From the NCBI GenBank assembly GCA_036172245.1, contig JAYWIR010000012.1:868001-932000 (forward strand): a stretch of 64,000 nt of DNA, read 5' to 3'. How positions within the stretch are numbered: position 1 is the stretch's first letter; the number at the start of each line of letters is the position of its first letter. Below are positions 2,165-62,230 of the stretch, piece after piece. This stretch comes from Raillietiella orientalis (lineage: Eukaryota). The translations under genes and the position numbers were made by a program. The notes under the pieces are model-generated. The model made no database searches. It had not been told where the DNA came from and saw only the letters and a list, made by a program, of their open reading frames with translations.

Positions 2165-3828
2165 GTGAAAATCCCGGAGGTTTCCGCGACAAAAGTCGCG
2201 GAAGCCTCAAAAAATCGTGACGGCGAATGGAAGGTTGTGAAGAGGAGGAAAGAAAAATCTCCAAAGAAAGCTTCGCAACCTCCATACCTGAGGTCTTCCA
2301 AAGCAAAAACCTGTCGCGCGAATACGAAAACACGCGCGGCTGGTGCTTCTGCCCAGGAAAAAGCCAGCGCCTTGAACGCGTGCAAGTCTGCCTCTGTGAC
2401 CGCCGACAAGACGATTCCGGTGCGATCAGGCGGAAGCAAACGAACGCCGAGAGCGCGAGCATCAGACTCCGTAAAGGAGTCCGCTACGCCGCTGAACGAC
2501 GCGTTATTCGCGCCGGAGCGGGCGTCCGCAGGGCTGAAGCCCTCAGGCGTGGCACAACTCGCCTCGGAACGGCGGTGGCTCACCCCGGAACCTACAAGTT
2601 GGATTGCCTGCCGCCACATGAACATTAATGCATGGCGGCAGGAATCTTTTTCATCGTGGGCCGCTTCCGAAGGAATTCGCGCGGAAGATCTTCGACGCCT
2701 GCGACTTCTCCTGAGTCATCCCTTGGACGAAGTCATGCAGGACAAGAAGAACTCGGATCGTCTGGCCGCCACACCGCTCGCCACAGCGCTGTCTGCCCTC
2801 AGGGCAAGCAACGACGGTTGCCTACCGGCGGAATGGGAGTTCTCCTTCACAATAGCGGGAGTGACGAAGCTCCTCGGCGGCTGGACGACAAAGGAGCTGG
2901 TGGAAGCCGCCACTCCTCGGAATCGGGCGAAGGGCCTGCTTCGGTGGAGTGAACATTTAAGTGTAACCCCCGAAGTGATAGTGGTCCCCCCCGTTTGTTT
3001 GGACAGCTCCTTGTTCCCCTTAAAGTGGAAACATGATGTGACGCTCTTTTTACACTGGGGATTCCACTGTAATCGGCTGCGAAGCATCGTTCCCGGGGGA
3101 GCTGCTTCGCCAAACTGTTTGAGGTGCGGAGAGATCGAGTCTTTTCCGCACCTCTTGCTGGACTGCGGTGACCTCCGTGAACTGTGACGAAGGCTGATTT
3201 CAGCCATCATGCCGCAGGTAGGCCCTGCCATTGATGTGCTGCGGCGCTTCTTCAGCAGGAATGGACTTTCGGTAGGCGTGATTGTCGCAACCATGTGTTG
3301 CATTCGCGCCATCGTGAAGGCCCGCTACGCCCTGGAGTAGTCAGCGCAGCGAAGGGAGGCTCACCTGCTTGCAGCCGTATCCATGGAGAAGGCTGCAAGG
3401 TGGCCTCATCTTCGTGACGAGGTGAAAGAGGACATCGCCGGCATCCATCGCCGGTTTACAGACTTTTGAGAACGGCGTGATCCGGTGACCACTGCGACCT
3501 GTAGCCCACCCATACCCCATCCCCGTTCGCTCTGCTGAATTCCCGGTGCCATTTCTTTTATCCCGGTGCCTACCAGAGTGATCCCAAAGACTCTTGTCCC
3601 GGCATCCCCATTAATTGTTTCTCTTTTGTTTTTGTTTGTTTTTGTTTCCCGTCCCCACACACCGTTCCCAAGACTGTTATTCTGGCCTGCGTGCCAGCAA
3701 TATTCTCCTGATCCTTGTTCAGTCGTCGGTTGGGAGCCTGGTTCCCAACCTGTTTATTTTATATAATTGTGATTTTTCTTCTTTATATTATATGAAATAA
3801 ACGCCCCTGCGTGACCGGGTGGAAAATC
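2165..3828 (+). mobile_element. Tx1-like element lacking RT: ORF1-tail-like basic region, then ORF2 C-terminus and 3' UTR
   Basis: FPLKWK..LHWGF...CLRCGEIESFPHLLLDC (zf-RVT-like); T-rich UTR; terminal motif AATAAACGCCCCTGCGTGACCGGGTGGAAAATC at 3796-3828. Confidence 0.8.
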
Positions 3829-5568: not shown

Positions 5569-8500
5569 ATGACCACCAGTAATGTAAGGAGCATATCTTG
5601 TTTTTTGGATGGAAATAGGGATTTATATTTTCCCTTTGCTCTCCCTAGTCCGTGTCCCTGTCCCGTAGTAGGATGTAAATTTGCCTCCGCTGCAGAAGAT
5701 AAGCATAATAGATGGAGAAACTTAAAACAACATTTGAGCAGAACACATGGAGTGTTTCCATCAGAATGCTTTTATTTTTGTCCAACATGCTATTTCACCG
5801 TTAAAATGTCTTTCGTCCCTACTCCTGCTCACTGCTGCACAGGAATAAAAAAATTCCACACCCCTGCCTGTCCCACTACCACACTTCAGTTATAAATGCA
5901 ACCTTCGATCACAAACATCTCCGTAAAAAATCATAAATTGACCGTGCACGGCAAAAAGTCCAAGATGACGAATTGTTCCGAGCTATTTGAGGGATGCATC
6001 TCGGAGTTTAGTGACCCTTATCATCAACGATTGATGGCAGGTGGTGATGCCTCTCCTCAACTGGTTTCTCAATCTTCCTCTTATGATCAACCTTCACAGT
6101 CAATAAGTGGTGACTGTAAAATCAAAGCTTCCCATGAACTCATCGTAGCAATTAGGATTTTTCAAACCCATAAAGAGGCCTTTGAACCATTACCAAACGA
6201 AAGATCCTTTCTCATTCCTGAAGAAACCTCCTTAGAATTCTCAATGTGTAGTAATCATACAAGCCTTGCTCATACGCCTACTGCAACGAGATCGTACGCA
6301 GATGTTCTAAAAAAAACAGTCCTGTGGTTCGAATTCCACGTGTAACGGAAGAAATTAGATCCCATAATTCTCTCTCTAACTCACGTTTACAGATTCCCAT
6401 TCTGAAAGCACAGTCTATTTCTCATCCTTTATCTCCAAGAACAGTTACTCTCTACACACCTTCACCCTTTGGTAGTCCAATTCTCAAGGATAATCTAGAT
6501 TCTGTAAACCCGTGTGATGATGCCGATCATTCCGAAACTTTGAATTGATCAGCACTTCTACCTTCGCAAAGTCTCTAAAGGAAATCACGTCTTAGCATTT
6601 TCCCATCGGTTCCCATCCAAACATTATCACACATCGCTCTTCTCTCTTCTTCAAAGAGAGTGAATGACAACGAGATTCTCAGTCCCCTCATAGTTCAGTC
6701 ACCTGATTTCAAAATTCGGAGGCTTCCCGTAGTGACGAACCTTTGCCCCCTTTTACACCTTTCTTCTGAGCAAATTTTAACAGCCTCTGAGAATGTTATC
6801 TAAAAACCCACTGGGTATCCTGCTTCGGTAAATATACCCGAATCTTCGAGCTCGAAAGCAACAACGTTTAGTCACTTGTCTGATACTAATTCCAAGGAAA
6901 TTCTTCGTACAAAAATTTCCCCTTCGTTTAAAAAGGAGGTTACAATAGTCAGTCCTCCCCCTCAGCGAAACATTAGGCAATCCACAATGTCGCCGTCAGA
7001 AGGGACTTCTACCTCCATTTCTGGACACTCAGCAATTCAACCAAGTCGACCTGTGACTCCACCACTGAATTCTCTTTCTCTACCACCATTCCATAATAGT
7101 GAAGTAGCCTCAACTTCGAATAATCATTTACTTGTCCGATGCCCTGTGTCTCCCTTACTAAATTGTATCATTGCTACGTGTCCATGGTGTACTCAAACGC
7201 TGGTTGCCAAACGTACCGTTGCGTCTTTGAATAGGCACTTCAGAAGTGCATGCAATCTCCCGTTCTATGAACATTTATTAGTGTGCCGGCGGTGCAATGA
7301 AATCATTCAACTTCCCATCCGGCATCATCCCTGGCTCAAAATGCGCAGTACCCGAGCGTCCAAACTGGTCCAGCTACGACACAAATGTACTGTTGCAAAT
7401 TGTTCCGCTTCTTTCCCCTCTGAAATCAGCCCGAATAACCATTCAAGGTGGCATGAGAGGATCCGAAACAAAAACAAATTGGGAGAGCCTTCGCAGTTGT
7501 TCAAATCTATAAGGACTTCCTCAGATCGATTTGAAAGGTTATCTAATCTTGAAGCGGAAACGGAAGATTCTACTATGGAATGTCAAACAAAAGTCCCTTT
7601 TCGAGAAAGCATCCCGCCCCGTGACCATCGAACCCCCACTATGAGATTGGAATAGCCATTTACTAGGGATAACATTCCTGCAAATCAAAGCTTGCCTATT
7701 GATCAGAATACCTCATCGCCCTCTGCAAATCCGGTAACAGTGCAATTTTCAAGATTTCCTACCTCTTCAAGCCTGTTATCCAACTTCTCCTATACTTTCG
7801 AACACTGGGCAGCATCCACCCCAAACTGCGACTCGTGGCAATGTGTACTGAACTCATTTCATTCAATGATGGTGGCCATGAAAATAAAATTCAAGATTCA
7901 TTCTTCCCTCTCTTCTACTCCCTCAAAAAATTAAAAAGCGTTTTAGCCTGCGTTATCCAAACATTGATTGCAATCCCTGTATAAACGTAACAGGAAACGG
8001 GCAGTTCGAGCGATACTCAATCCAAATCCACTGACATTTGAAGGCTCCAGAGCACTTCTCGGAGAAGTGCTCCGTGAAAAATTTTCTGAGAAGTTTACGG
8101 CAAGTAAAATAGTTGATTATGTTGAAGATGTAACTGCCCATAATGATGTGGACTATATCTTCCCAACAAGTCAACATTGCACTGAATTCATGTATCGATA
8201 GCGCCCCTGGAAGTGACGGAATTGTATACTCCGTACTTCGTCGTGCAGATCCAGACGGTTCCTTTCTTGCTTCTCTATTCTCTGCTCGTTTACACCATCA
8301 CAGAATTCCAGATGATTGGAAATCCTCAAGAACAGTGTTCAACCCAAAATCAGGATCATCGGACTCCCTAAGCACCTTCCAATTCCGACCCATTTCCATT
8401 TCCAATACGATAGGTGAACTTTTTTCAAAAATCCTGGCTCGTCGATTGCCATCGTGGATTATCAGAAATGGCATATTAGGTCCCCACCAAAAAGGTTTCC

Positions 8501-10683
8501 TCCCATTCGACGGTGTGCTCGGACAGAAATTTGTCCTCGCTTCTTCCATCGAGGAATCACAAGTTCATCATAAAGATTTGGCAACTGCATGGATTGACAT
8601 AAAAGATGCGTTCACATCTTTTCCGCATAGCTTAATTCTAAATTCTTTATCGACATTTGGAGCTGGAGACCATTTCTGTTCCATGATAGCCGATCTTTTT
8701 TCGAATTCCTTTACCTTCATAAGGAAGGTCCCACCAATTCCATTCCAATTTGTGCAGGTGTTCGCCAACGATGTCCTCTGAGTGAACTAATTTTCAATAT
8801 CTCTATTGAAACAGTTCTAAGAATGTTACTCGTGGAATGCCCTAATGTTGCTCCCTTTGCATATGACATCGCATTAATGTCGGACTCACTTGACTCCATT
8901 CAAATAGCTGTAAACCTTCTAGCTGACCATATGAAACGAGTAAGGCTGGAAATCAATCCGAAAAACTTCGTTGCTTCTTCACCTTCTTCTTCACCTCTTC
9001 TTCACCTTTATACGTATATGGCACGCAAATTCCTTCTCTTGCCCACCCAGAGACTTATCTTGGTAAACCCATAGGATTCGACCCTCTGTTTTATGATGGT
9101 GCTGTGGAATCATTCATTCGTTCATTCAAAATTTTAACTGACTCCCTTCTCGCACCATGGCAAAAACTGGATGCCATTAAATCTTTCTTCCTCCCTTTCC
9201 TTGTTCATGACCTTCGCCTGTCCAAAAAAGCTTTGAGCTCGTGAGTTAGGCTCGACAAAATCATTTAGGATGTCCTGAAGCAGTCTATCCTTTCCCTCAC
9301 AAAAGGATCATCGAACAAATATCTCTATGGAAAACCAAGAGATGACTGCCTTGTCCCGATGATTCTTATCGAGGAAGCACGCTCAATGACGGTAGATTCC
9401 GCCTTCAAAGTGCTTACTTGCCGATACAGCAGAGTCGTCGACCTTGAAATGATGACGTTGTCAGACACTGTGAAGCAGAAGACCCATATCCCTCCCGACC
9501 TTACCCTCATTATCCGGTTTCTCAATGGGTGTTGTGTGGAACCCCTGAATCGCATGAGTGGTGACTCACGCACATTTTCCTCCGCGGTTAGGGAAGCATC
9601 CAAACATCTACCTATCAAATGGGGTTTTGAGGAGAACTGCATTACCATTTCCGTTCACTCTCCCACTACTGAAAACCCCAAAATTGTGTCTGCTTCACAT
9701 AGGAGGCAAATAGCAAGAAACATTCGCTCTTTTCTAAGAGACAAAAGGTGCAAATCTCTCTTTGCGAAGCCTGATCAGGGAAGAATAGGGGAATGCGTTA
9801 GCCTCCATCCCGCGTCCATGTCCTTCCTATCGAAGACTGATGGTATAAGATTTTCTCATTGGCGATTTATCCACAGAGCACGATTAAATTAGTTAGTGTT
9901 GAACGGAAGTCGAAAAGTGCCGTTTCTGCGGATATGAAAAAGAAACATTAGCGCATGTATTGTGCCACCGTCCCCGCCATTTGAGCTCCTCCATTACCAA
10001 AAGGCACGACTACGTAGCGGATTACATTTTTTCGTTACTGTCTCCAACGTGGCCAATTTCGTCTCATGACAAGAGAATCGAGACAGTAGAATCTTTCCTA
10101 CGTCCCGACATCTTCTTGCGTGGTGGAACTACAGAGATTATCGTAGATATCATTGTTCCCTTTGAGGATCGTCCCATTGCATTCAAAGGAACCAGAGAGA
10201 ATAAGATCACTACAAAATTCCTTACGTAACCAGGGCTTGAACGTGATCAATGACGCTATTGTCTTTGGTGCTCTAGGAAGCTGGGACCCCATTAATGACA
10301 ATCTACTGAAATCCCTAGGAGTAAACAATCATACTCTAAGAGATGTGGCAGCCCATTTATGCTACGCCACCATTTAGTTTTTCAGAGATATTTACTGTCA
10401 CCACGTCTCCACAATGGAAACAGCTCCAAACCTTACTGAAACTTCGATCTCCTCCCACATCCATGATGTCCACGGACCGACTTCTCTAATCCTGCATGAT
10501 GAAAATCCCAATGATTTTAATACCCCACTTGGACAAGGCGTAGCCATCCTTACTTCTCTTTGGGTTCCCTTTTCGTGGATAAACACTTTCCCTTTGACTA
10601 CAACAGTGCCAGTGTTTCTCACTTTCAACAAAATATGCCAGCTAGAACTTAATGACAACGGACTGTTTATGCAAAAAAAAAAA
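5569..10683 (+). mobile_element. Near full-length degraded RLE-type non-LTR retrotransposon (Utopia/NeSL-like)
   Basis: N-terminal C2H2-like fingers; RT motifs SAPGSDGI, FRPISISN, HQKGF, AWIDIKDAF; PWQKLDA; RFIHRARLN; CRFC..ETLAHVLCH; RPDI..IIVDIIVPFE; GALGSWDP; A-run at about 10673-10683; many stops and frameshifts. Confidence 0.9.
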
Positions 10684-10849
10684 TAGTCTAAAATAATCAA
10701 ATACTTATCTAAGGACATCTTAATACAAATGTTCCAAACTTTTACATTGTTACCCAATATTGCTCTATACGAGAGAAAACATGTATCTTAAATGCCGAAA
10801 TGAAAATATGTCAACAAACACAAAATATATCAACGGAGGGTTGCTCGTT

Positions 10850-14150: not shown

Positions 14151-15139
14151 TGATTTCATCCGCAGAAAGGACGTTGCGAGAAGAGAAACGAACATTCGCG
14201 TATCCTTTGCTTACTAGGGCTTCTATGACACTGGAAGATGGGTTGTGGGGATACTTGAAAGTATTGAAAAGTAGAATTTTGGTGGAGGAAGATGAGGATC
14301 CGTGGAGGCAAGGGGTAGGTGGACGGTTCCAAACAAATGAATAAAGGTAAGCGTAATGAATAGGAAATCAGCATTTGGTGCGTGAGTTCGCTGTTCACTG
14401 AAGATGCTATGTAGGGAACGCTGATAAGAACGCTTCTTAGGTGAACAAGGCAGAAAACGATGGAATACCATGATGGCATAAAAAAATGAGTGAAGCAGAT
14501 GTGAGTAGTCAGGCAATGGTGCGTTCGAATGGTATGCTTCAAAGGTAAGTATGAAAAGGTTGTGATTGTGTATGCTTAATTTCAGCTTCAGCTGACCTGG
14601 TTGAGATGCTGTTTTGGAAGTAGAGATGGTGCAAATGATGAGAGGAATGGAAACAATGGTTGTAAAGATTCGCATTAGCATCGGGCATAATCAAGACACT
14701 TTCTAGAAGCTTCAAATAATGGTCATGGAAATGCTAGGATGTTCTTCTCTCTGTGGAGCCGTCCGTTACTGCTAATAATTCTGTGAGAATGTTGGCAGTG
14801 TTTAAAGTAGATGAGAGGGTATTGAGTGGTCGATCTTGATTCGAGGTTGTTGTCTAGAGGAAATGAGATTTTTTCTTTGCGTCAGAAAGACTCGCTTCAT
14901 TCTTCGCACCACTTTCTTGTGCAGTGCGAAGTGCAGCTCTACCCAAGGTAGTCACTTCACTTGTGCAGACAGATCTGTGAGTCCCCAGGAGAAGTAGGGA
15001 ATCTTGCTGGGAAACCGAGACGCTGCGAGACGACGTAGCTCTCGTACTAAGAGGAACCTGCGAGGAGAACTTTCTGCCATGAACACGGGCATATTATTCT
15101 CTCTGGCTCTGCCTGCTCTTCCTGCTTTTTCTTCTTGAT

Positions 15140-17500
15140 TTATTAACTGTTATTTAGTTCACTGGAGATTAACTGCAGGACTGCCCTGCTCTCATGATGT
15201 AGTCATTGGGGTCGCTTGCATCGTCGGGTGAATGCCCCAGTCCGTGTGTCCAGTAGATGTCCCTGCTGGCCCTTATGCAGCAGGATACGGCCAGTTTCCT
15301 CAGTTTTTTGGTGCTCTTTTCCTTGGTTGCCAATAATCTTAGCGAAACATCATTTTGGGGATCCCATGATCCTATTGTCCCCACGATGAGGCATGCATGA
15401 TAGCTGTGCGACCGGTCTGGTTCATCACGTGGATCGAGTTTTCGTATTTTTCTTCTTTTTTCTGATGTGCTTCAGAGAGGTTTTCCTTGCCCTGAGATAG
15501 GCAGTTAACGTATACGATGATTGACATTTCGTATTTTTTGAAAATTAAATTCCGTTTTAGCAGAAAGTCCACTCCAGGAAGCATTTGGCCCGCTGATATG
15601 AGCTTGCATCCTCCTACCTTCGTGGCAACTCCTTGCAGTCTCAGCACGATTGCATTATGTCTGGCGATGTACATGGGGAGATGCATCACGCAATGGTTTA
15701 ATATGTGTGGCAGTGTTTCATCCCGGCAGTTACATCTTCGGCACAGACAATCGGCTGGCAGTCTTCTTTCTGCTCCTCTAATTGGTGGGCATTGGATGGA
15801 TGTATTGGATGAAGGCATGGATGGAGTAGAGACTTCTATCTGCAAGAGGGACACCTGTGAGAATCGGGTGATTCGTTCTTCTCCATAGCGCGAGCCGTTT
15901 CGTGTGAAGTGGTCCACGTCCAGACCACGGAAGCAGAAGAGACAGATCAAAAAAAAGTTTCTCTCGCCCCTCATGCGAAAGAAGCAAGCAAGTTCCGTGC
16001 AGGATTTTTCCAGCAAGTCTCACATTTTCTGATGGCTGCCTCGTGCGCGATACCCTCTCTATGAAAAAAATAGAGGTAGTAAAATGCTAATTGCAGTCAT
16101 TTGGTGACTTCACATTTTGAGCTTTGAAATTTGAAGAGCGAGTTAGGTGAGTAGCCAATAAACGACGAGACAAAGCGAGCGCATGAAGCAACGAATAAAT
16201 GGCAATTCGGACCATGTGACGGTCCTCTTTATGATTTTTGATGAAATACCTCTTCCGCTTGAAGAGAATGAGAAGTTCCTATTAAATGAACATGGATGCA
16301 CAACCAGAGCACAGTTCTGGATGTGATTTGTGCACAATTTTCGTGGTTCAGTGCTCCCTGAATGCGAAGAGGAGTCCAAGTATTATTGGTGAGGGACCCA
16401 AGAGGAAGTTTCAGATAGCAATAAACGCGCCTCCGCAAGCGTCTTCGGTTACGATGTTGCCCGTGCACAAAGCATATTCGCCCAAGATGCAGTAGGGATG
16501 CCAATAAGCCTAAGTAACTTAACGACGATGCGACGGTTGCCTTAGACTCTGGAGCGCTGTTCAAGTGATATGCTTTCTCGCTCCCGCATTCACGTGATAA
16601 CTTCTGGAAGCTCTGCACTGCGTGCGGACTGCTGCGAGCATGGATGGCAATCTCAACTAGTTTGTTATGCGATCTCAAAACCTTCATTTTTAGGATCGAG
16701 CAAAGTGCATCTTCGAAGAAGAATCAGAGCAGTATCTCTTTGAGGGTGGCAACCCCATAGGAGTCTTGGTATCTCGGGTAGCTGTGGCAACTGTGTAGGT
16801 TGGTGCGTTTGAGGAACACGAGAGCACTGTCTTCTCACGTTACAAAGCTGCGGTTGCACAGCGCACCAGGTCCCCAGTTCAAGATGCGCGTGAAGCACGA
16901 CGAGGAAAACCAAGGTGTCGTTCATAGGAAAGGCAGTGAAAGCCAGTGCTCGTAGGGATTTTAAGAATCCTGCCCAACAGTGCAGGATTCTCATGTGATC
17001 ATTCGGATTCACATTCTTCTTCATCCAGGCTGCCTTCCACCTGCTATGGAACTTTTAGATCTTGACATTCCTAAAGAGAAACACCCTCCGGGCTAGTTGA
17101 TAGCAGTGTTTGCTACTTATACTCAGTGTTGAAGATGAAAACGGAAGTAACAAACATGCAGTAGGCTGCACATTCCGAGGGAAATGAACGATATGTGCGT
17201 GTCACTCCGCAACAGCTCGGTCGCACGCGACAGCAAGTGCTTTCTCCCAGTCGCTGCCACGCTCATCGGTAGGCATCGCTGCTGTCACGGGAAAGTCACA
17301 GGAAGCTTGCACGCGCGCCTGAAGAACACGTGTGCTCCTTTGATGTTCTCTTCACCCGTTGATTGCAGCCGTGGCACTGGCTGCATGAGGAACATTGAAA
17401 TTCCAGGAGGGCAGCCTGCATCTTGGAATCCATAGCTGTATGTTCTCACAGAAAATCTTGTCTGCTGCCGGCGGCTTGCAGGAAGTTGTGATGAGAGCGT
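15140..17500 (-). mobile_element. Degraded RLE-type (Utopia/NeSL-like) element, 3' part
   Basis: CRRCNCRDETLPHILNHC..RHNAIV; GTIGSWDPQND; SRDIYWTH; upstream limit approximate. Confidence 0.75.
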
Positions 17501-19622: not shown

Positions 19623-20000
19623 GGATTATCATCCGGGTGCGTTAGGGCGTTTATTCCATATAAAACCAAACATTTATAATCTCTGTGGCTTGACCATGGT
19701 CCAATCACTTGCTCCACGAACAGACCTGCCGCTTTACCAGTCACAGGCTGGTGTGATCCACTACGGCAGCAGAGGGAAGGGAGCAAACAAAAAAGAAAAA
19801 GAAAAAGAAGTAAACTTTGGGGGGGGGAGGGGGAGGGAAGGGACCACGTTCTGCTGGGGACAATTTTTTACATCATTTGGAGGGTGCCGGAAAATCTTGC
19901 AGGATGCTGTTTCCCAGGTGGGGCCATCTTATCGCCATCATCATGAAACTGGCGGCGAAGTGGATATGGCAGCCCTGTCGCTCGCTCTTCCTCTTGCATA
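19623..20000 (-). mobile_element. Tx1-like 3' end fragment
   Basis: Terminal motif AATAAACGCCCTAACGCACCCGGATGATAATCC; C-rich then T-rich UTR as in other copies. Confidence 0.7.
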
Positions 20001-26007: not shown

Positions 26008-27760
26008 GTGACACTTGGGCTCGCCTCCTGCATCCGAATCCTCGTGGGCTCTTACAACGTCAATGGGCTTTGTGACGACGGCAGAACATGCAATTTTGAA
26101 CTGGCGCTTCTGCAGGATATCCACATGATCTCCGCAGAGGATGCCCAGGAGATCGATAGGATCGCTGGGGGGCGGCGGCTGCGGCGTTACGGTTTTCGCA
26201 ACACCTTCAGGGTCGCGTTTTTTTCGAAGCCAACCATCGAGGATGCCGTGAGGGGCGTGCGCCTTGACGGAGACGGTCGAGTCGGCCAGCTGATTGTCAG
26301 GTAAATCGACTCGATCGACCGCGTCGTGACCAACTTGTACGCTCCCAGTAGGAAATGCAAGTTCGCAAGTAGAACTCCGTTCTTCAGTGAGCTGAAGTCC
26401 TAGTGGTTCAAGTGTGCAAAGAGCGCACTAGATAGATGGGAGTTTCAACTTCTGCCTGTTGTCAGGTGCAAAGAAGGACGTCTCTGCTGCCCTGGCTGTC
26501 GCGTCGTATCTTCTGTGCCATGGCCGGAAGATCAAAAGATGTGGCCTTCCCCTGAGACGCATGGCTACCCTGGCTAAGGAGAACGGCTGGATGGTATGCA
26601 GCCCGCCAACTCCTCCGCATGGCTGGACGAATCTGTTGGAACGTGGGCAAAGTTAAATGCCCAGGGAGCAGACAACTGCAACTGCCTGCGATTCTGCACC
26701 CGCGCACGCTGCACCCTGCGGACTATTCTGGATTGTCCCGCATGGAGCACGTTGTCGGAGACCACCCCAATGACCACGGCGATGCCCTACCTGAGGAGGG
26801 CGCTCGGCAGCAGCCGGACGCCGAGGTGGAAAGTCTCCGGCCGTATCGCAGGCAGGGAGAAGCAGATGAGCGGCTGGACCGTGAGCGAACTGGCTGACGC
26901 GACGACCCCAAGCGTTCTCCCGCGCGGTATACGGAGATGGGGCGAGCTGCTGGGCATCCCGCTGGATGACCCAAAGTGGCCCCCGTTATTTAGAGACGCA
27001 TCCATCCTCCCCCTCAAGTGGCAGGAAGCGGCGCTGCTGTTGTTGCACTGGGGTCTTCCCTGCAACGCTCACTGCCAACACTGGACGTTGGGGAACGTGG
27101 GACAGCACTGTGCAGTGTGCGGGGAGAAGGAATCCCTCCCCCACCTGTTAGTGGACTGCGATGCCCTCCGGCCCTTGTGGGAACGTTATGCTACGACCCT
27201 CCCTATGCCGGTCAGCAGTACCCCCAGAGACGTTCTGAGACTCCTCTTCGTGCGAAACGCCCTGCCACCAGCCTCAACCCTGGCAGCGCTCTGCTGCCTC
27301 CGAGAGATTGTGGCTGCGTGGAGTTCAGCCAACAGAGGAAGCAGCGATATGGACCCCATCGTACACGCGGGTCGCTACCTGCAAATCGCGATCGGCTGGT
27401 CCCATCTGGGAGCTATGACGAGAAACCTCGAGGGCATCCTGGAAAGGATGGTCTCTTCCTCCAGCGGGCTGTGATCCCTTCCCGGCCCTCCAAATAGTTT
27501 CTTTTTGGGTTGTTTTGAGTTCTGGATGTCCTCAGGATGACGAATGAGGACTTTGGCAATGGTAAGGGAATGAGGGCTGATTTGTTTCATTTATTTTTCT
27601 TTTTGTTTTACCCCTATCCCCTCCGCTGCCGAGGATAGTCAAGCCGATCTGAGAGCCGGCTTACTGACAGGTCCCATGAACTATTGACCATAGCGCGGCC
27701 TAGTACCGCAAATGTAAAGTGTTTATTAATAAACGACCCGGCGTGACCTGGTGAGAACTC
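26008..27760 (+). mobile_element. Tx1-like element: APE start followed directly by ORF2 C-terminus (RT missing)
   Basis: GSYNVNGL..LALLQDIH..NLYAP, then LPLKWQEAALLLLHWGLPCN..CAVCGEKESLPHLLVDC; terminal motif at 27728-27760. Confidence 0.85.
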
Positions 27761-28060: not shown

Positions 28061-28627
28061 GTTGCAGGGGAGAGGCTCCAATCCTGCTGTTGCATGCAAC
28101 ACCATGATCGCGGACTCCTGTCACTTACTGGGAGGATAGCGTTGTTGGCTGCTGGGGGCCACTTCACCTCTTTCCCTCCTGTGGCAGCTCTCTCCAGAGT
28201 AGCAGTTCGTTGGGTGGGCCTCTCTGGCCAACGATGACCTTTTCAAAGCCTTTGAAGGGACTATGCTTGGCCCAGAGTGCGTGGACGGTACCGTACATAT
28301 TGAGCTCTGTCTGAACGCCGTCTTTCACCAATCGGACCGTTATGCCTGTTAAGTGGACGAGCTAAGAGCGGACCACCGTTACAGGGAGGAGCTTGCGGCC
28401 CCCATTGTAATGGGGTTTCTAACATTTGCTGAGATAGACTCGTGCTTTTGCAGGTCACTTCCACGAGCTGTCATCCACTTCCAATGCAATGCCCCTAAAG
28501 ATCCTCTTTTCGTACTCTGAGCCGCGCAGCTCCTTCGCAAAGGAGTGAGAGGTCCCCGGAAAATAGAGCTTGCCTAGGTTGCATAGGAGAGTGAGGTAAT
28601 ATACTGTCCACTAGATAGGTGGCGTAT

Positions 28628-29508
28628 AGATGACAGCTGCGAACCGGCGAGATGGGAGGTCGCCTGCACCATCTCAGGAACAACACGACCTATTGGCGGC
28701 TGGAGGACTTGCGAGCTGGCAGACGCCGCCACGCCTCGCCACATCCCGAAGGGACTACTTCGGTGGAGTGAACATTTGAGTGTGCCCCCCGAAGAACTTG
28801 TGGTCCCTCCCTCCTGTTTGAACACTTCGGTGTTCCCCCTTTCGTGGAAGCAGGACGTCATCATGCTGGTGCATTGGGGTTTTCACTTCAACCAGCGGAC
28901 GAACCGTGTTTCCGGGGGAGTTGTCTCCCCAAGCTGTAAGCGGTGCGGGGAAGTGGAAACGCTCCCGCACCTGCTCCTGGACTGCGGTGCCCTCCTAGGA
29001 CTTTGGCGGAGGCTGGCCTCAGCTCTCCTGCACCAGGGGGACACCGCGAGAGACTTTATGCGCCGCTTCTTCACGCCAGGCAGCCTGTCTTTCGGTGCTG
29101 TCGTTGCAACCGTGTGTTGCACGCGTGCCATCGACAAGGCCCACCGAGAGTTGGAGAAGCTGGCCATCCTTCGTCAGCCCACCGGACTAGCCAGCGCAAA
29201 CATGTCGTCGGCTGCCGAGTGGGACCACCTACCAGAGAGCGTGAGGAGAGAGATCGCCGGCATCCATCGCCGGTTCTGAAAGGAAGGAACGGCCGAACCA
29301 AAGACCCCTGTCCCCTGCCCTCCATATTTTTCTTTTTATTTTTTTATAGTAGTGTATTTGTGGTCCCCTCCCTCCCTTTCCGCACTTTCGGCATACCGAC
29401 CTGCGTGTCGGGGATCCCACCCCCTTCGTCTCTTGTTTTTCCCTTTGTCCAGGAACTCTGTTCCCGGATAGTTTTTAACAAACGCCCCGGCGCACCCGGG
29501 TGATAACC
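28628..29508 (+). mobile_element. 5'-truncated Tx1-like element inserted antisense into U2, with 15 bp TSD
   Basis: AGATAGGTGGCGTAT at 28613-28627 and 29509-29523; intact ORF2 C-terminus (CKRCGEVETLPHLLLDC); terminal motif at 29477-29508. Confidence 0.9.
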
Positions 29509-29548
29509 AGATAGGTGGCGTATCAGATATTAAGCTGATAAGAACAGA

Positions 29549-30362
29549 TTTTTATTTATGAAAAAGTTACAAATTTGTGTATGTATGAGCAGCTGTGGCT
29601 CTTCCTAATCTACCAATCCCTTTCTATAGCGATGAACAGCTTTGGACATAATTGTTTACTATAATTCCACATCTAGGAACTCCAGCGAGTCACAAGCATC
29701 GTCTGGTGCACGATCTAGGCGATGTGTCCAGTAGATATCCCTGCTGCATCGAATTACAGTTGATACGATCAGCTTTCTCATCTTAGCTGCATATCTTCTA
29801 TGGATGCCTAAGCGCTTAAGGACTACGTCATTCTTAGGATCCCATTATTCTAAGGCTCCAACAATAATAGCATGAACCTCAGCCTGCATTCCTCCTCGGG
29901 ACAATGATGTAGCGATCTGCTGATATCTGTTCTGCTTCTCCTGCCTGGTAGTAAGAAATGCCTCCTCCCCATTTTCAAAGGGGCAGGAAACATCCAAAAC
30001 CACCATTCTTTGATCCTTTTCGAGGATGAGATTCGGACGCAGTAACGAGTCCACGCCTGGAACTTTTTCGTTCTCAGAAATCAACCTCCAATCAACTGTA
30101 GCAATAGAGGCTTTTCTCAATCTCTCCACTACTGCATTATGCCTAACTTGATACATGGGGGAGTACCTCAGGCAATGGTTAATTATTAGAGGCAGTGTCC
30201 CATCCCATGTACCACATCGACGGCACAGCCGATCCTGTTCTGGTCTCCTCGATATTCCTCGGATCGGCACTAGGTTTAAACGTGCTGAGTGAATGAAACG
30301 GAAATCTGAGAATCGTAGGTATTCACCGTTGTTGAGAAAGTAGCTGGAGATTTGATGGAGTC
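29549..30362 (-). mobile_element. 5'-truncated Utopia (U2-targeting RLE retrotransposon)
   Basis: RFSDFRFIHSARLN, CRRCG..LIINHC, RPNLIL..VLDVSCPFE, IIVGALE; 3' end AAATAAAAA abuts U2 TCTGTTCTTATCAG; 5' end abuts U2 ...AAGTGTAG. Confidence 0.9.
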
Positions 30363-30799
30363 CTACACTTTGATCTTAGACAAAAGGCCAAGGAGAGGAG
30401 AGTGGGGTCTCTGAGGGTGATCTCTCTGAACATACCGCAATCCCGTCATTCCCTTTGCTGAGAGAACACTCACTTTTGCAACGTCCAAGGCAGGAGTCTC
30501 GCGACATTCATCCTCCGTTTCGGTTCGACGCTGATCCTCTTTGTTTTCCTCTCAGTCCAGATCCCTCCCATTTGAGCATGGTTTCAAGTGACTGAGCAAA
30601 TTTGTGATTCAGCACAGGCTCTCACTCCAACCATCCCCAGCTTTTCGTTCTTTTCGGATGAAAGGGCATCAAAATTTTGAGCCAAAGGTCTCTTGAGAAC
30701 TGTCCTGGCAACGTGTGATGTCTTTTTTCTCTTATTTTTTAAATTTTAGAAAAGGCCAGTAGTGACCTCATGCCGAGATCGCCACAATTGACCTAAGAT

Positions 30800-42157: not shown

Positions 42158-44523
42158 CTAGACCCGAACCGAGCGGTACCCACGGAACCGGGCTGACCTG
42201 GCCTGGAAATCCCCGGTGGGTGTGGTGGTATCGGCTTCGAGGGACTTCGTGCATTCCTTCTCTTCCTCCTCCCCGTCTTCCTCGTCACTGACCAGAACCT
42301 TGTCCACAACGAAGAGATTGCCCAGGTTGTACACATACAGGTCGCTGAGCAGCACAGTAGCTCCGTTCACGGTGATGGCTCCTGAGCAGGCGAAAGGAGA
42401 ACATTCGGGTTCAGAAATAAGCAAATTCGGGTTTCTTCCCTTTCCTTCCCTTCTCCCTCTTTGCTGTTGCTGGACTGCAGGGAGCCCCCCGTGACAAGGA
42501 GCACCCGAAATGGTAAAGGGGACGCTCGCGGGGTCAAGTGAGTTTCGCCCGCAAGGTCAGGAAGGCGAGAGGGGGCAATCCCTCTCCCTTTCCCTCAGCC
42601 GGAGGGGAAGACGTGGTTGCAGACGCTGCTCTCCTGCGCTCCCTGCACTCATTCCGAACTCTCGGAATGGGTGCGGCCCGGACGTCCCATTCCAAGAGAG
42701 CGGACGGAAATACAGAAAGAGAGGGACTTGCCATTCTTCGTTGTGACCCGGATGGGTTTGCCTCCGAGAGACTTCAGAGCTGTGGAAGCTTCCCCGGAAG
42801 CGCCAGTAAAGTTCGAGGAGTACCAGTATCCCGGGAGGGTGTGGTCCAGGAGCAGCTGGCAAACCTTGTCGAAGTCGAACTGGTCCGTACGGATGTCGCT
42901 CCAGGGCAGCTCCCGGAGCGCCGAGTCGGTAGGCGCGAAGACGGTGAACTTGTAGTACTTGCCTGCAGGGGAACAGGAGGAAGAGGGGGGCGTGGCTCCG
43001 CTTCCCAGCACGCAGGGGCGGCGCACCTGAGTCGTAGTGACGGAAGCGCAGCGCTGCCCCGTGAGCGGTCTCGATGAACCACCGGAAGCGAGTCATGTCC
43101 TCCAGCTCCCCCAGCTTGTAGAAGAGGTTGCTCAGAAACTGGGACTCGATATGGGGGTACGTGAGCAGGGGAGCCGTCTCCTTGTCCCCATGGCGCTTCC
43201 TGAGCTCCTGGACGACATTCACGTCCAGGAAGAGGACCTGGTCGATGAAGAACGCGTTCCCTCCGGACAGGCGCGTCTCCTTGTTGACGATGACATCCGC
43301 CCCGTTGACGGTATAGCAGCCTGGTAGCTTCCGGAACACTGCAGGAAGACACGGGGAGGAACGTGAGTCCTTCCTCAGCTTCTCCCCTCTCCTGGGTGCT
43401 CACCCTTCGTCACGTGGCAGTCGTCACTCGAAGTGGGGCCGATCTGCAGCTTCTCCCCTCCTAGAGTCTCTCTGGTGACGTTCCTCTCGGCGAAGTTCTC
43501 GAAGGACATGCGCCCGAGGACGAAGTGGTTCAGGATGACCTTGTCCCGGAACTCATCCACCGAGAACGGGTTAAACCCGTAGTCCACTGGGCTCCAGCTC
43601 CAGAAAGCCGCGTCACTGGGGACGAAGACCGTGTACTCCCTTCCTGGAAGAAGAGGCGGAGCATTCCAGAGGCGCTGGATCAACGCGCTACCACGGTTAC
43701 CCCTCCCCCTCCCCGCCGCTTTCCTTCCCGGAAGCGCTTGTTCTTTCCTGCCCATTCGGGACCACCTTCTCTGGACTGTGTGGAGACGGGGCCACCCTCC
43801 AGCACGCGGTCTCCCGGCAGCCTGCGAAGCGGTCGCGAATGCATCCCTGGCTAGCGAGAAGGACCGTCTGTTCTGACCGCCCCCCTTCCCACCCCGCAGG
43901 AAGGAGATTCAAGGTCCTCCGACCGTAAACTGTCGGTTGCTTCGAGAATGCACCCAGCGGCTCAACATCGGGAACCACACGCGAACCGAAGAGTCCCCTG
44001 AGGGAAGGATGAAACTAGGAAGGCCGAGGGAAAGGAAACGACATCGTCTTGTCCCTTCCGACGACGACGCGCGCATCCTAAGCGTCGTCAGGTGGACCGG
44101 GGAGGACCGCCTCATAGAATCGCGTCTCTTTGACTCCTTTATCAACCCTTCCCAGAGCATCGCCCTCTCCTCCCTCCCGCCCATCACCACCACCAGGATC
44201 CGCTCGATGTTGCGGAAGTCCACGAGGCACTCACCGGAGAGGAAGTGGCGGTGGATGCTGCTGGCCAGGCCGAGCTGCCTGATGAACTCCCTGCAGAGGG
44301 CGTGGTTCTGCAAGTGGCGGATCAGGGATGCAGCGAAGTTCCCCTCGAGCTCCGCTGCTCCTTCGGAACCCGCGTGGACGGTGGTCTCCTCCTCCGAGCT
44401 CGCTGCGGCGGCGCGCGCCCCGACGCCAAAACGCAGCACGCAGATGCAGCAGCACACGAATAGCGCGGCCCCTGCCGCGCTGCAGCAACCCCTGCACCGA
44501 CCCACAGCGGACGATCGCGCCAT
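42158..44523 (-). CDS. Secreted fasciclin (FAS1) domain protein, about 431 aa; exons 44235-44523, 43404-43643, 43027-43338, 42732-42962, 42158-42381
   Basis: Hydrophobic leader; two FAS1 H1 motifs (YTVFVPSDAAF, FTVFAPTDSAL), TLGG/SLGG, TVNGA, H2 motifs (FIDQVL, VVDKVL); all four introns phase 1 and frame-consistent; last exon end less certain. Confidence 0.88.
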
Positions 44524-54600: not shown

Positions 54601-55545
54601 CAGGTGCCTTTCATGATCCAGTTTGCTTCCATAAAGTTGCACGCTACAGTGCACCTGCAGCGCCTGTATGGTGCATTTTCATTTCATGAGATCTTGTATT
54701 TCCCGATATTGGTCCTTATATTCATTATAAGTGTTCAATGTTAATATATTCATAATTATTTGTTTATTGTCTATTCATTATGAAGTTTCAAATGTTTTCA
54801 GAATTTCAGCTTCATTATGTGTTGTTCATTGCATTGTATTAGATTACAGTGTAATGACCCTTTCAGAATGGATCTTTGCAAAACGCATGCCCTTCTTCGC
54901 CCTTCATTTGCATGAAACAATTCAATTGCTTGGACAGGTGGCAATCCATACAATAGATGTTCCCTCCTATACAGGGTAATCGTGTAAGTCTGTAAGGAGG
55001 GAAATCGTCGCTGGTAGTTTCAGTCCCAGTCAAGTCCTGCCACAGGTTGTCCCAAGGAATGCATTCTTACAAAGTCTCTCTGCCCTAAGCATGCCTTCTA
55101 AGCTTTGATGACGATGAAAACCCGCGTATTTTGACAGCGCCTCCTGATGCAGCTTCACAAAGGCAATCATCAGCTGCCGCATCTCTCTGACGTAGATGAA
55201 AGTGCTGCCGCCGTAGGTCGCACGATTGCCTCTTTATATCAGTGGACTGCCTGCGTGCGATGAACGAAACTTCGACCTATAAAGTTCAAAAAAAGTGTCA
55301 TCCTGATTGGGATCCTTAGAAGATATGGCACTTGCAGCTGCAAGTTATCGCCATCATGTTGCTACAAGAATTGCTGTTGATAGTGTTGCGTCTTCACAGA
55401 ACTCCATCGCCCGGTGACGCCAAGGCGTTTCTTCAAAACAACAAACCAATCGGGAGCACAGTTCCAAACAAATAGAAAATTCAACAGGTACCACCTACAC
55501 ACACGTCGTCCACTCTAAACGTTCGGAACGGGTGGGTCTTTGGTA

Positions 55546-57020
55546 TCAGCCCGGGTCTTTGACATCGCCCGCTCCTTCTTCAAAAACCGGGAAAATTCCT
55601 GAGTCGGTGGAATGGGACAATAAATAAATAAATAAAAAGGTGGGAGGAGACAGGATCTTTGGCCTCGACCGTTCCTTTCTTCTAGAACCGGCGTTGGATG
55701 TCGGTGATCTCTGTTCGTACCTGTGTAACCAGGTGAGGCTACCTAGCAACCGTCCTCGTGTAGGTGACTGCCTTGCTGGTGACCCCCATTCGCTGCGCTT
55801 GCGTCTGAAAGACATGGCCGTGGCAATGACGCCGATGATCACTGCACCTGCTGAGAGTTCGCAGCGCGAGAAGAATCGCTGTAACAGGTCTCGTATGCGG
55901 TGTTCAGCTGGCACAAGAGCTCTGAATCCACCACGGTTCCTGGAGGCGCACCGCATTCCACAAGAAGACATGGGGTGGATTCCACCGACCCGCAACTGGG
56001 ACGGTTCGGCTAAAGAACTCCCCCTGAAACAAGCTTCAGGGACTGGTTGCACTGGACATCCCAGTAAGGGAACAGCAGCAGCCTGTTTCCTACTTATTGG
56101 GAACACTGAAGTGTTTAGGCACAAGAGAGGGACCACTTGGTCATGGGGGAGGGGGGACACCCCTAATAGTTCGTACCACCCACGTACTCCCATTGCTTGG
56201 GAGCGAGAAGTGGCGGCGTCCACCAGCCCACTCGTTGTCTAGTCGCCCAGTAGTTGGGTCGCTCCTGCAATGGTTCAGAACTCCCGCCCCAGAACTCCTG
56301 CAATGGTCCTGAGGGTGAGCCACTGTCGTCGCTCACCCTCAGGACGGACAGTTCTGCGGCAAGGACTGTAGCGTCGAGCTCTGCATCACTTCATCCGAGA
56401 GATTTCTCAGGAAGTGACGCAGACAACGGAGTTCCTCTGGTTGCATTCCTTAGTTTGCAATCCAGGACACAACCAGCTCCTGTTGCCGGGCATTCACTGA
56501 GCGGCAGGAGATCCATGGCTGGGCTTCCGTAAGCGAGGCGCGTTGCCTCAGCGGGATGCTGACACCCGCATCCTGTAGCGGCAGCAACGGTTCCTTCGCT
56601 GCCGGCGCATCGTTGAAGGATGAGGCGCGTAGGCTCACACCACGGGAAGTCCACAGTTCGTCGCAGAGTGCAAAACTGAGTTTGCAACCCGACTTTCTCC
56701 AGAGTCAGGATACCTAAATCAGCATCCCGACGCGCAGCATCCAATTCTTTGTGGTCCGCTCCAACAAGGCGAACTTTCCATCGTGGAACGGGCTGAGAAA
56801 CGAGGACGGACTTGAAGGCGAACGCCGAGGTGTTTGAAGTACCTGCCCGTGGGTATCTCTAGGCGGATCCAGTTAGACTGCCCCTCCCACGCCACGCCGA
56901 CCGGGACGAGCGTGGACTTCGTCCTGTTGTAGCGCACGCCCGCTCCCCTATGGAAGAGCACGGAATCCTGGAACCTGGCTGCTGGCTTCATGCAACTTGG
57001 CACCTGGCTTTGCATGTACC
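55546..57020 (-). mobile_element. Degraded Tx1-like 3' portion including the end of RT
   Basis: YNRTKS..FKHLGV (KYLG-like), DLGILTL, LNTSVFPIS, ending similar to the 28628-29508 copy. Confidence 0.7.
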
Positions 57021-58739: not shown

Positions 58740-59820
58740 TGCCCTGGCACTTCCCAGCATGCTCGGAAGCACAGACTCAGGCAGTCCGTCCATCGAAATG
58801 TCTTGAAGATGAGCAGGCAGCGTTCTTTTTGAGCTTCGCGCGGACTTGCTCTCGAAAGCAGCGGCGCAATGGTCACTGCACCCTTCGCGTGGAACAGAAG
58901 ATAACGAACAAGAGCGCGAGCGAACGGGCGCCGCTGAAATCACCGACCAGTTTGCCCCGCGCAGTTCATCGTCCGCAAGTCCATCGACCGGAGGTTTGTG
59001 GAGGTGGGAGCTGAGACGAGGCGTAATTTCGCTCCAAGCCGAAGCAGCATTCCAAACCGGAACCGGAATGGACCTCGGAGAGGTGGGCTACTACCTCGAT
59101 CTGGAGTGTTCTAGTCACACAGCAGGCCGACTCCTAGGAGGATTTCTGCCGAGCACTTCACAGCGGGAACGCACGCAGCTGTCCAAACACGACGCCCTCT
59201 GTCGGCGCCGCCCAAGTCACCTGTGCTTTTCAAATGGAACCTCTGGTGATGGCAACACCTTCCAGCTCTTCGTGTGCCTCTCCCTCCTCGCAGCAACGGA
59301 TACTGCGATGGTTCTTTCGACCAGGGCTGCGGCCAGGAGGAAACAAGCGGATCGCACATGTCGGAGCTGCCAGGTGCAGGACGAGACGTTGCCCCGAATC
59401 TTAAATCACTGCATGAAGCACTTTCTCCTGCTCACTGCGCATCACAAGGCAATCCAGGAAATGATCAGGATCAGGCAGCAGATAGAGCGAAGCGGGCGCT
59501 GGTGTCAATCAACCAGGATGCTTCAGGAGAAGAGACTCCCCCTTTCGACCAGACCTGATACTACAGAAGGGGAATCGCATAATAATGCTGGACGTCTGCT
59601 GCCCGTTCGGGGATGGAAGAGGGGAGTTCGCTACAGCTAGGAGAAACAAGATGGAGAAGTACAAAGTGGTCCTCCAGCTAAGCAAGGAAGGGAAGCAATG
59701 CAAGGCGCATGCTGTCATAGTCGTTTTATTAGGAGCCTGAGAACCAGAAGATGAAGAGGTGATGTACGATCTTGGAGTTCCTAGGAAACACTCTAGGAGG
59801 ATGAGGCACCGCATGATGCA
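58740..59820 (+). mobile_element. RLE-type (Utopia/NeSL-like) 3' fragment
   Basis: CRSCQVQDETLPRILNHC; RPDLIL..IMLDVCCPF; LLGA*EP. Confidence 0.8.
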
Positions 59821-61299: not shown

Positions 61300-62230
61300 T
61301 CCTGGCCAGTCAATGGGGCATCCAATTTCCAGCTTCCACCCTGGTTGCATCCTGGTAGTGCCTGGTTGCAGGAAACCGTTCGCACGTGGGCGAGAATCCA
61401 GGAGCCAAACGCGGAACAGGTGCGATGCTTCTTGCACGCGTGCAACAACAGCTGCACGCTCCGGGAGATCCTGGAAGATCCCGCGAAGAGCGCATGGGCA
61501 AGCAGAACCTCCCTCGCCGCCGCGCTGTGCTCCCTTAGGGAACACACAGACAGCATCCTTACTGCTAGATGGGACGTTGCTTTGAAAATCTTCAAAAGGG
61601 AGAGAAGGACTGAGCGAGTGGACGACGGGCCAGATCACCGATGCTGCGATCCTGGGTGCTCGACCCATGGACTTTTGAGCTGGGGAGTGCTACTGGGTAT
61701 TTCAGAGGAAGACCTGCAGTGGCTCCCAGTGCTCATGGACACCCGCACCCTCCCCTTAAAGTGGCAGGAGTCGGCATTGATGCTGCTGCACTGGGGTCTT
61801 CCTCGTAACGCCCGTCGTCATCATTGAACGCGGGTGTGTGTGGATCCAAACTGTGCAGGTGCGTGGAATGGGAATCTCTCCCACACCTCCTAGTGGACTG
61901 TGTTGCCCCTTTGAGGACACCTTTTTGCGACCCTTGGAACCCCTGGCTGCAACTCCAGAGACGTTTTAAAGCGCCTCTTTCTGCGAGCAGGAATAGGCGT
62001 GCCGCCGCGGTTCTACCACTTCCTTCCATTCCTTGTACCCATTGCCGCCGTAGCCACGGAGGCAATGGGTACAAGGAATGGAAGGAAGGGTATGTTCCCA
62101 GAACGTGTCTTTCACAGAGGGCTCGTGTCGAGAACTGACACGGCTGTAGAAACTCTTGAGGATTTCCCAGTAGCCTGGACCTCATTTCTACTTGACAAAA
62201 TGCTGGAGGCTCTACAGTGGCCACTGTAGA
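61300..62230 (+). mobile_element. Degraded Tx1-like 3' fragment
   Basis: LPLKWQESALMLLHWGLPRN; ESLPHLLVDCVA. Confidence 0.75.

Follow-up and report, generated by a model that had tools for sequence, protein, structure and literature searches.

Retrotransposons that insert specifically into the genes of small nuclear RNAs (snRNAs) form a very short list, which in the part of PMC4640811 devoted to them comprises Keno and Utopia in U2 genes and Dada in U1 and U6 genes. Keno belongs to the Tx1 clade, encodes an apurinic/apyrimidinic endonuclease (APE) and is specific for U2, as described in passages of PMC4640811 and PMC4494074; Utopia carries a restriction-like endonuclease (RLE). Section 6 of Kojima & Jurka 2015 (PMC4640811) reports that the U2 sequences flanking Utopia and Keno on the 3′ side are identical and that both elements have evolved specificity for the same site; it also states that the U2 sequence downstream of Utopia begins at nucleotide 39 and that the arthropod families lack a target-site duplication (TSD). 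We analyzed a U2 locus in 64,000 nucleotides (nt) of the genome of Raillietiella orientalis (GenBank assembly GCA_036172245.1, contig JAYWIR010000012.1, positions 868,001 to 932,000 of the forward strand; hereafter the window, whose own numbering is used throughout). Here, a decayed U2 copy is split by two retroelement inserts 40 nt apart, one of them (insert 1) an RLE element at the Utopia site and the other (insert 2) a fragment resembling a long interspersed nuclear element (LINE). A first-pass annotation had described one U2 copy hit by two different retroelement classes and had raised the possibility that both families prefer U2. The description is borne out by our analysis, whereas the evidence points away from a U2-directed insert 2, whose position is most likely fortuitous.

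On the minus strand, the locus reads U2 (30399-30363), insert 1 (30362-29549), U2 (29548-29509), insert 2 (29508-28628) and U2 again (28627-28597). The middle U2 segment opens with TCTGTTCTT and continues through stem-loop IIa into the beginning of stem-loop IIb. Excision of 29549-30362, of 28628-29508 and of one copy of a 15-bp duplication restores the first ~95 nt of U2, and the coordinates proposed in the first-pass annotation proved exact to the base. In a local search of 2.6 kb with the Rfam U2 model, 29549-29503 aligned without gaps to model positions 38-84 (31.9 bits, E 5e-4), and 30399-30364 aligned with high posterior to model positions 1-36 within a weak global match of 19.8 bits. 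For the spliced sequence, a home-made DNA profile built from six U2 sequences of the metagenomic loci described below stood in for the Rfam covariance model. With its natural flanks, the spliced sequence gave nhmmer one continuous match of 58.9 bits over profile positions 6-95, while the native, unspliced sequence gave two separate matches of 32.5 and 12.9 bits with the same profile; piece 1 (Table 1) corresponds to profile positions 5-39. The features of the 5′ half of U2 (stem I region, branch-point region, stem-loops IIa and IIb) are present in order, and both stem-loops form in the predicted fold of the spliced sequence. Piece 1 aligns with the full U2 of metagenomic locus L006, including an extra A in GATCAAAGTGTAG, which we regard as a lineage variant rather than damage because the complete U2 of L006 has the same A.

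The U2 identity of the locus is confirmed for the first ~95 nt only. In the intact window, no U2 match reached the Rfam gathering score (RF00004, 46 bits; best piece 31.9 bits), a search of 28400-28645 for the 3′ half of U2 (Sm site, stem-loops III and IV) returned no Rfam match at E ≤ 10, and nhmmer found no U2 beyond 28597, the match of the spliced sequence ending at profile position 95. By eye only, an Sm-like run, GGAGCTGCG and GCATTGCATTG can be picked out in the correct order in 28440-28596, and GCATTGCATTG is also found in the U2 of metagenomic locus L003. The U2 sequence at 28597-30399 is the sole U2 found within the window.

Insert 1 reads as a Utopia element at its canonical site and as the product of a site-specific event. 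Its open reading frame (ORF) of 233 codons (30360-29662) is interrupted by one in-frame stop at 29845-29847 and is followed by a 3′ untranslated region (UTR) of ~113 nt with an A-rich end. Three R2 structures were matched by this ORF in a PDB search (E 7.6e-7 to 5.3e-6), over the end that carries their CCHC zinc knuckle and RLE; at the conserved RPD motif the copy has RPN, with Asn in place of the first (catalytic) Asp. The last base of the A-rich tail is 29549, and at 29548, which is U2 nt 39, TCTGTTCTT begins in sense orientation. By the nt-39 definition in section 6 of PMC4640811, the 3′ junction is therefore exactly that of Utopia, in agreement with the first-pass annotation, which had placed the Utopia target just before TCTGTTCTT. 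Upstream of the insert, U2 stops after GTGTAG, and there is therefore no TSD at insert 1, nt 37-38 being lost or ambiguous. These alignments, together with those of insert 2 given below, establish the anatomy of the locus, the classes of both inserts and the use of the Utopia site.

Longer homologues of the insert 1 ORF were plentiful (n=52 at E ≤ 1e-3; best E 5e-48; 45-48% identity), and those with named hosts come from ticks, a crayfish, aphids, spiders and the dragonfly Ladona, host groups that overlap the Utopia hosts listed in PMC4640811. Their alignment displays N-terminal C2H2 fingers, a reverse transcriptase (RT), a CCHC motif and an RLE. Scanning metagenome contigs with this alignment yielded 52 loci encoding relatives, in 34 of which at least 300 nt were available past the projected ORF end. 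The U2 14-mer starting at nt 39 (at most two mismatches) lies 146-837 nt past the projected ORF end, directly behind an A-rich tail, in 13 of the 52 loci, a count that leaves out L012 (junction within the match range) and L034 (junction on the other strand). Rfam was run on 15 motif-bearing loci, and in 12 of them U2 reached or exceeded the gathering score. With this U2 nt-39 junction among its relatives, the protein family of insert 1 would be the U2-nt-39 lineage. Insert 1 would accordingly count as a new, dead member of the known Utopia group and the locus as one more example at the canonical U2 site; the recovery of the same U2 junction in a quarter of the fetched metagenomic contigs (13 of 52) is a by-product of the analysis. 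Two of the metagenomic contigs, L006 (837-1013 and 5768-5902) and L008 (1-104 and 5157-5284), have U2 on both sides of the Utopia relative, which is the arrangement of U2 arrays with inserted Utopia copies that PMC4640811, in the passage concerned, describes for Phytophthora.

Other RLE-class sequences occur elsewhere in the window. A near-full-length, frame-broken element occupies ~6800-10690 (+), with its RLE C-terminus at 9803-10431. R2 structures are the nearest to its RT (8134-9071; E 4.8e-18), which is the only RT found in the window; an A-run at ~10672-10684 lies near the end of the element, and the 3′ flank (from ~10685) is not U2. Two decayed RLE C-terminal fragments, at 15196-15785 (-) and 59311-59806 (+), are 38-51% identical per aligned segment to the insert 1 protein, and no recognizable U2 flanks either of them. 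A U2-like string of 11 nt (14420-14431) that lies behind the second RLE fragment was discarded as being at chance level (E 4).

Insert 2 is by its sequence a 5′-truncated LINE-like fragment with a weak zf-RVT-type C-terminus. It is bracketed by a perfect direct repeat (15/15 bp; 28613-28627 and 29509-29523) and contains an ORF of 216 codons (28629-29276) with no stop within it before the stop codon at 29277-29279. The 3′ UTR of ~230 nt holds a conserved 22-nt motif (29481-29502) and ends in ATAACC, with no poly(A). Over all 216 codons the frame is 56% identical at the amino-acid level to another copy at 2810-3457, and at least eight fragments of the same superfamily lie within the 64 kb, with differing 5′ ends and each truncated to at most 1.3 kb. 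The 22-nt motif, which is GC-rich and 3′-terminal, occurs five times in the window against 0.02 expected; it is followed by a few A/T-rich bases, and a small hairpin is predicted there, without covariation. A conserved, motif-ended 3′ terminus without poly(A) suggests that the RT recognizes a specific 3′ end. A search for TSDs at the remaining four LINE 3′ ends of the window found none; an 11-mer considered as the TSD of the copy ending at 27753 was rejected, as it falls inside the element.

The sole family signal of insert 2 comes from its C-terminus and stays below threshold. Against the curated cut-off of 27.5 bits for zf-RVT (PF13966), insert 2 scored 16.2 bits (E 0.018) and a sister copy at 26578-27471 scored 19.7 bits (E 0.0014), both below the cut-off. 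Insert 2 is 43% identical over 46 amino acids, spanning the CxxC...H...C motif, to a zf-RVT protein, and Atlas feature matches to zf-RVT clusters (scores 0.97 and 0.96) served as a lead only. The fragment contains no endonuclease or RT, and no APE or L1-type RT was found among window ORFs of at least 150 amino acids. Comparison of insert 2 with solved structures gave nothing relevant, and a profile of eight window and related sequences gave no match there. Neither the single sequence (5452 candidates) nor an alignment (7999 candidates) retrieved longer homologues. In a HMMER search of 1.84 billion representative proteins, insert 2 had three matches, of which only P0002 is real (E 9e-5); P0001 and P0003 were rejected as repeat-protein artefacts. 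The Tx1 label that the first-pass annotation gave to insert 2 is thus not supported. Given this near-absence of protein relatives, the source lineage or the element family would be poorly sampled.

Table 1. Coordinates of the split U2 copy, its two inserts and related LINE-like sequences in the window
Feature	Position	Strand	Remarks	Basis
U2 piece 1	30363..30399	-	~model positions 1-36, ends GTGTAG	Rfam alignment and nhmmer
Insert 1, predicted 5′-truncated Utopia-type RLE retrotransposon that lacks long terminal repeats (non-LTR), 814 bp	29549..30362	-	sense relative to U2	
U2 piece 2	29524..29548	-	model positions 39-63: TCTGTTCTT and stem-loop IIa	Rfam, nhmmer 32.5 bits
TSD, copy by insert 2 3′ end	29509..29523	.	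U2 model positions 64-78	
Insert 2, 5′-truncated LINE-like fragment, 881 bp	28628..29508	+	antisense to U2	
TSD, copy by insert 2 5′ end	28613..28627	.	exact repeat of 29509-29523	
U2 piece 3	28597..28612	-	stem-loop IIb 3′ arm and conserved run, to ~profile position 95	spliced-sequence match
Possible decayed U2 3′ half, not demonstrated	28440..28596	-		short motifs by eye
Other insert 2 superfamily fragments	~11552, 26608, 33272/33811, 55685-56647 (-), 61357			
22-nt 3′ motif copies	3800-3821 (+), 19630-19651 (-), 27732-27753 (+), 29481-29502 (+), 55408-55429 (-)			

We analyzed the flanks of related copies for a preference of the insert 2 family for U2, which the first-pass annotation had offered as one reading of the locus and which we now consider improbable. 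In the window, U2 adjoins one of the five recognizable 3′ ends of the superfamily, and the flanks of the other four are unrelated, non-U2 sequences; the relevant passage of PMC4494074 calls a family target-specific when >20% of its flanks show one and the same target. A sequencing run of a related organism (X1; 0.06 share of words) contained 64 contigs resembling insert 2, with identities of at least 99% (n=1), 95-99% (n=6), 90-95% (n=17) and below 90% (n=40). Their summed depth was 10-42 across the element and 16.5 in its last bin, and it fell ~20-fold, to 0.75, in the U2 bin across the junction. This fall argues against U2 specificity because copies with a shared U2 flank should give contigs continuing into U2. 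On the U2 flanks themselves, X1 gave nothing usable, and its lack of any joint that skips either insert is uninformative since the contigs come from another organism. A rough estimate from 8 insertions per 64 kb and a target of 95-190 bp would put the chance expectation at 0.012-0.024 per U2 copy. In full-text literature searches, Keno and Utopia were the sole U2-targeting retrotransposons named, and none was named at the stem-loop IIb site, an absence that extends as far as those searches do.

These observations suggest the following history, which as a whole we consider very probable. A minus-strand copy of the U2 snRNA gene, dead today, would have taken two independent retrotransposon insertions. 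An element of the Utopia lineage would have entered in sense orientation at the canonical site, with U2 resuming at nt 39 behind the A-rich tail; no TSD would have formed, nt 37-38 being lost or ambiguous, and the copy, 5′-truncated to its last 814 bp, would later have decayed. A 5′-truncated copy of the abundant LINE-like family would then have entered stem-loop IIb in antisense orientation via target-primed reverse transcription, with nicks staggered by 15 bp between U2 model positions 63/64 and 78/79. This step would be a chance nested insertion in repeat-rich DNA rather than a second U2-targeting strategy, and for insert 2 taken by itself we hold chance to be highly likely. The LINE probably came second, into a U2 copy already split by Utopia, because its 216-codon ORF is intact and its duplication perfect, whereas the Utopia copy has acquired a stop codon and lost the catalytic Asp. 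We infer this order of events, and likewise that the LINE lacks site specificity, from the state of the two copies and from the flanks and depths given above.

Several points weigh against this history. As the 3′ half of U2 was undetected, the "gene copy" could instead be a 3′-truncated U2 pseudogene, and the spliced sequence was scored by a home-made sequence profile, not by the Rfam covariance model. The 3′ flanks compared are those of window copies; these four other 3′ ends belong to other subfamilies, ~65-78% identical to insert 2 in DNA, and therefore say little on the preference of its own subfamily. In X1, one contig continuing into U2 could account for the 0.75 of depth left in the U2 bin, and Logan contigs break at repeats, 6 of the 57 X1 loose ends being displayed. 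Finally, the a priori probability that one 190-nt gene takes two non-LTR insertions no more than 40 nt apart is ~1-2%. A chance of this size is low, but it would not stand out in a scan geared to coincidences.

The most consequential alternative is that the insert 2 LINE subfamily represents a third, independent U2-targeting lineage that inserts in antisense orientation into stem-loop IIb (model positions 64-78), a new site beside that of Utopia and Keno. If true, a new site and orientation would be added to the list of snRNA-targeting elements, and one genome would have two unrelated endonuclease types working at neighboring sites within the same multicopy gene. Insert 2 lies where a multicopy RNA gene is most conserved, with a site-specific element 40 nt away; this location invites the idea, as do the insert's clean 15-bp TSD and undamaged ORF, the unexplained residual X1 depth of 0.75 in the U2 bin and the switching of targets among snRNA genes and repeats that PMC4494074 describes, in the part concerned, for related clades. 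We nevertheless consider it very unlikely, given that U2 holds only one of the five 3′ ends in the window, that X1 depth drops ~20-fold at the junction and that the superfamily, with its many copies, differs from U2-specific families, which PMC4640811 in its account of them describes as low in copy number. In addition, insert 2 bears no endonuclease or RT that would link it to Tx1 or Keno, and its antisense orientation and its site are unlike those of any described U2-targeting element.

Two further alternatives question the locus itself rather than the behavior of its inserts. The three pieces might never have been a U2 gene, being chance U2-like strings or a U2-derived repeat, e.g., a short interspersed nuclear element (SINE) with a U2-derived head; such SINEs exist, having been reported from crocodilians only in the passage of PMC4494074 that treats them, and the lack of a native U2 match at the Rfam gathering score and of a detectable 3′ half would agree with such an origin. 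Yet the alignments to model positions 1-36 and 38-84 follow each other in order on one strand, and the joints between the U2 pieces coincide precisely with the edges of two inserts that were delimited independently. Once spliced, the sequence yields a single match of 58.9 bits, and stems IIa and IIb form in its fold. The window holds no further copy of the U2 pieces and therefore nothing that points to a repeat family, which leaves this origin with a very slim chance. Slimmer still is the chance that the arrangement is an assembly chimera joining repeats that lie apart in the genome. The region is very repeat-rich, the locus is known from the assembly alone, and the single sequencing run found holds only look-alike LINE copies, but neither the perfect TSD of insert 2 nor the canonical nt-39 junction of insert 1 is expected from a misjoin. 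Among these readings, a site-specific Utopia insertion joined by a chance nested LINE remains the one we prefer.

A few other features of the window lie apart from the split U2 copy. A U4 snRNA-like sequence at 16357-16474 (-) spans the whole Rfam model (43.7 bits against a gathering score of 46); it lies 13 kb from the U2 copy on the same strand and is not split by an insert. An ORF at 43378-43908 (-) contains a Fasciclin domain (26.5 bits against a cut-off of 22), the only non-transposon Pfam match among the 52 window ORFs tested, and is located within a stretch of 58-62% GC (36-48 kb) that is full of long ORFs on both strands. At 62016-62091, on both strands, a palindromic hairpin matches plant MIR4239 and MIR6426 at about half their gathering scores; it probably belongs to a mobile element as an inverted repeat and is not a microRNA gene. 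A dinoflagellate origin of the DNA was also considered, and a spliced-leader motif sought on that account gave no match.

Among the described elements, insert 1 is closest to Utopia, with which it shares a C-terminal CCHC motif and RLE, the sense orientation, the nt-39 junction and the absence of a TSD, and from which it differs in consisting of the last 814 bp only, with a stop codon, RPN for RPD and no RT. R2, the RLE element specific for 28S ribosomal DNA, provides the best solved-structure match to its endonuclease end, as it does to the RT stretch 8134-8778 elsewhere in the window, but the target here is U2, not 28S, and the identity is at the level of the RLE superfamily only. Insert 2 resembles Keno in being a non-LTR element inside a U2 gene. 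Keno, however, lies in sense orientation with a 3′ flank from nt 39, and, as described in section 6 of PMC4640811, it shares one site with Utopia, contrary to the first-pass annotation, which had placed its target further downstream. Insert 2 is not at this site: it is antisense, 25-40 nt downstream, with its TSD at model positions 64-78, and for these reasons it matches no described U2-targeting element. Moreover, Keno is U2-specific, whereas other copies of the insert 2 superfamily in the window lie outside U2. Insert 2 departs from an ordinary dispersed L1-like LINE in lacking poly(A), in ending with a 22-nt GC-rich motif and in having almost no public protein relatives, but it shares with such a LINE the 5′ truncation, a 15-bp TSD, many truncated copies in unrelated flanks and a zf-RVT-type C-terminus.

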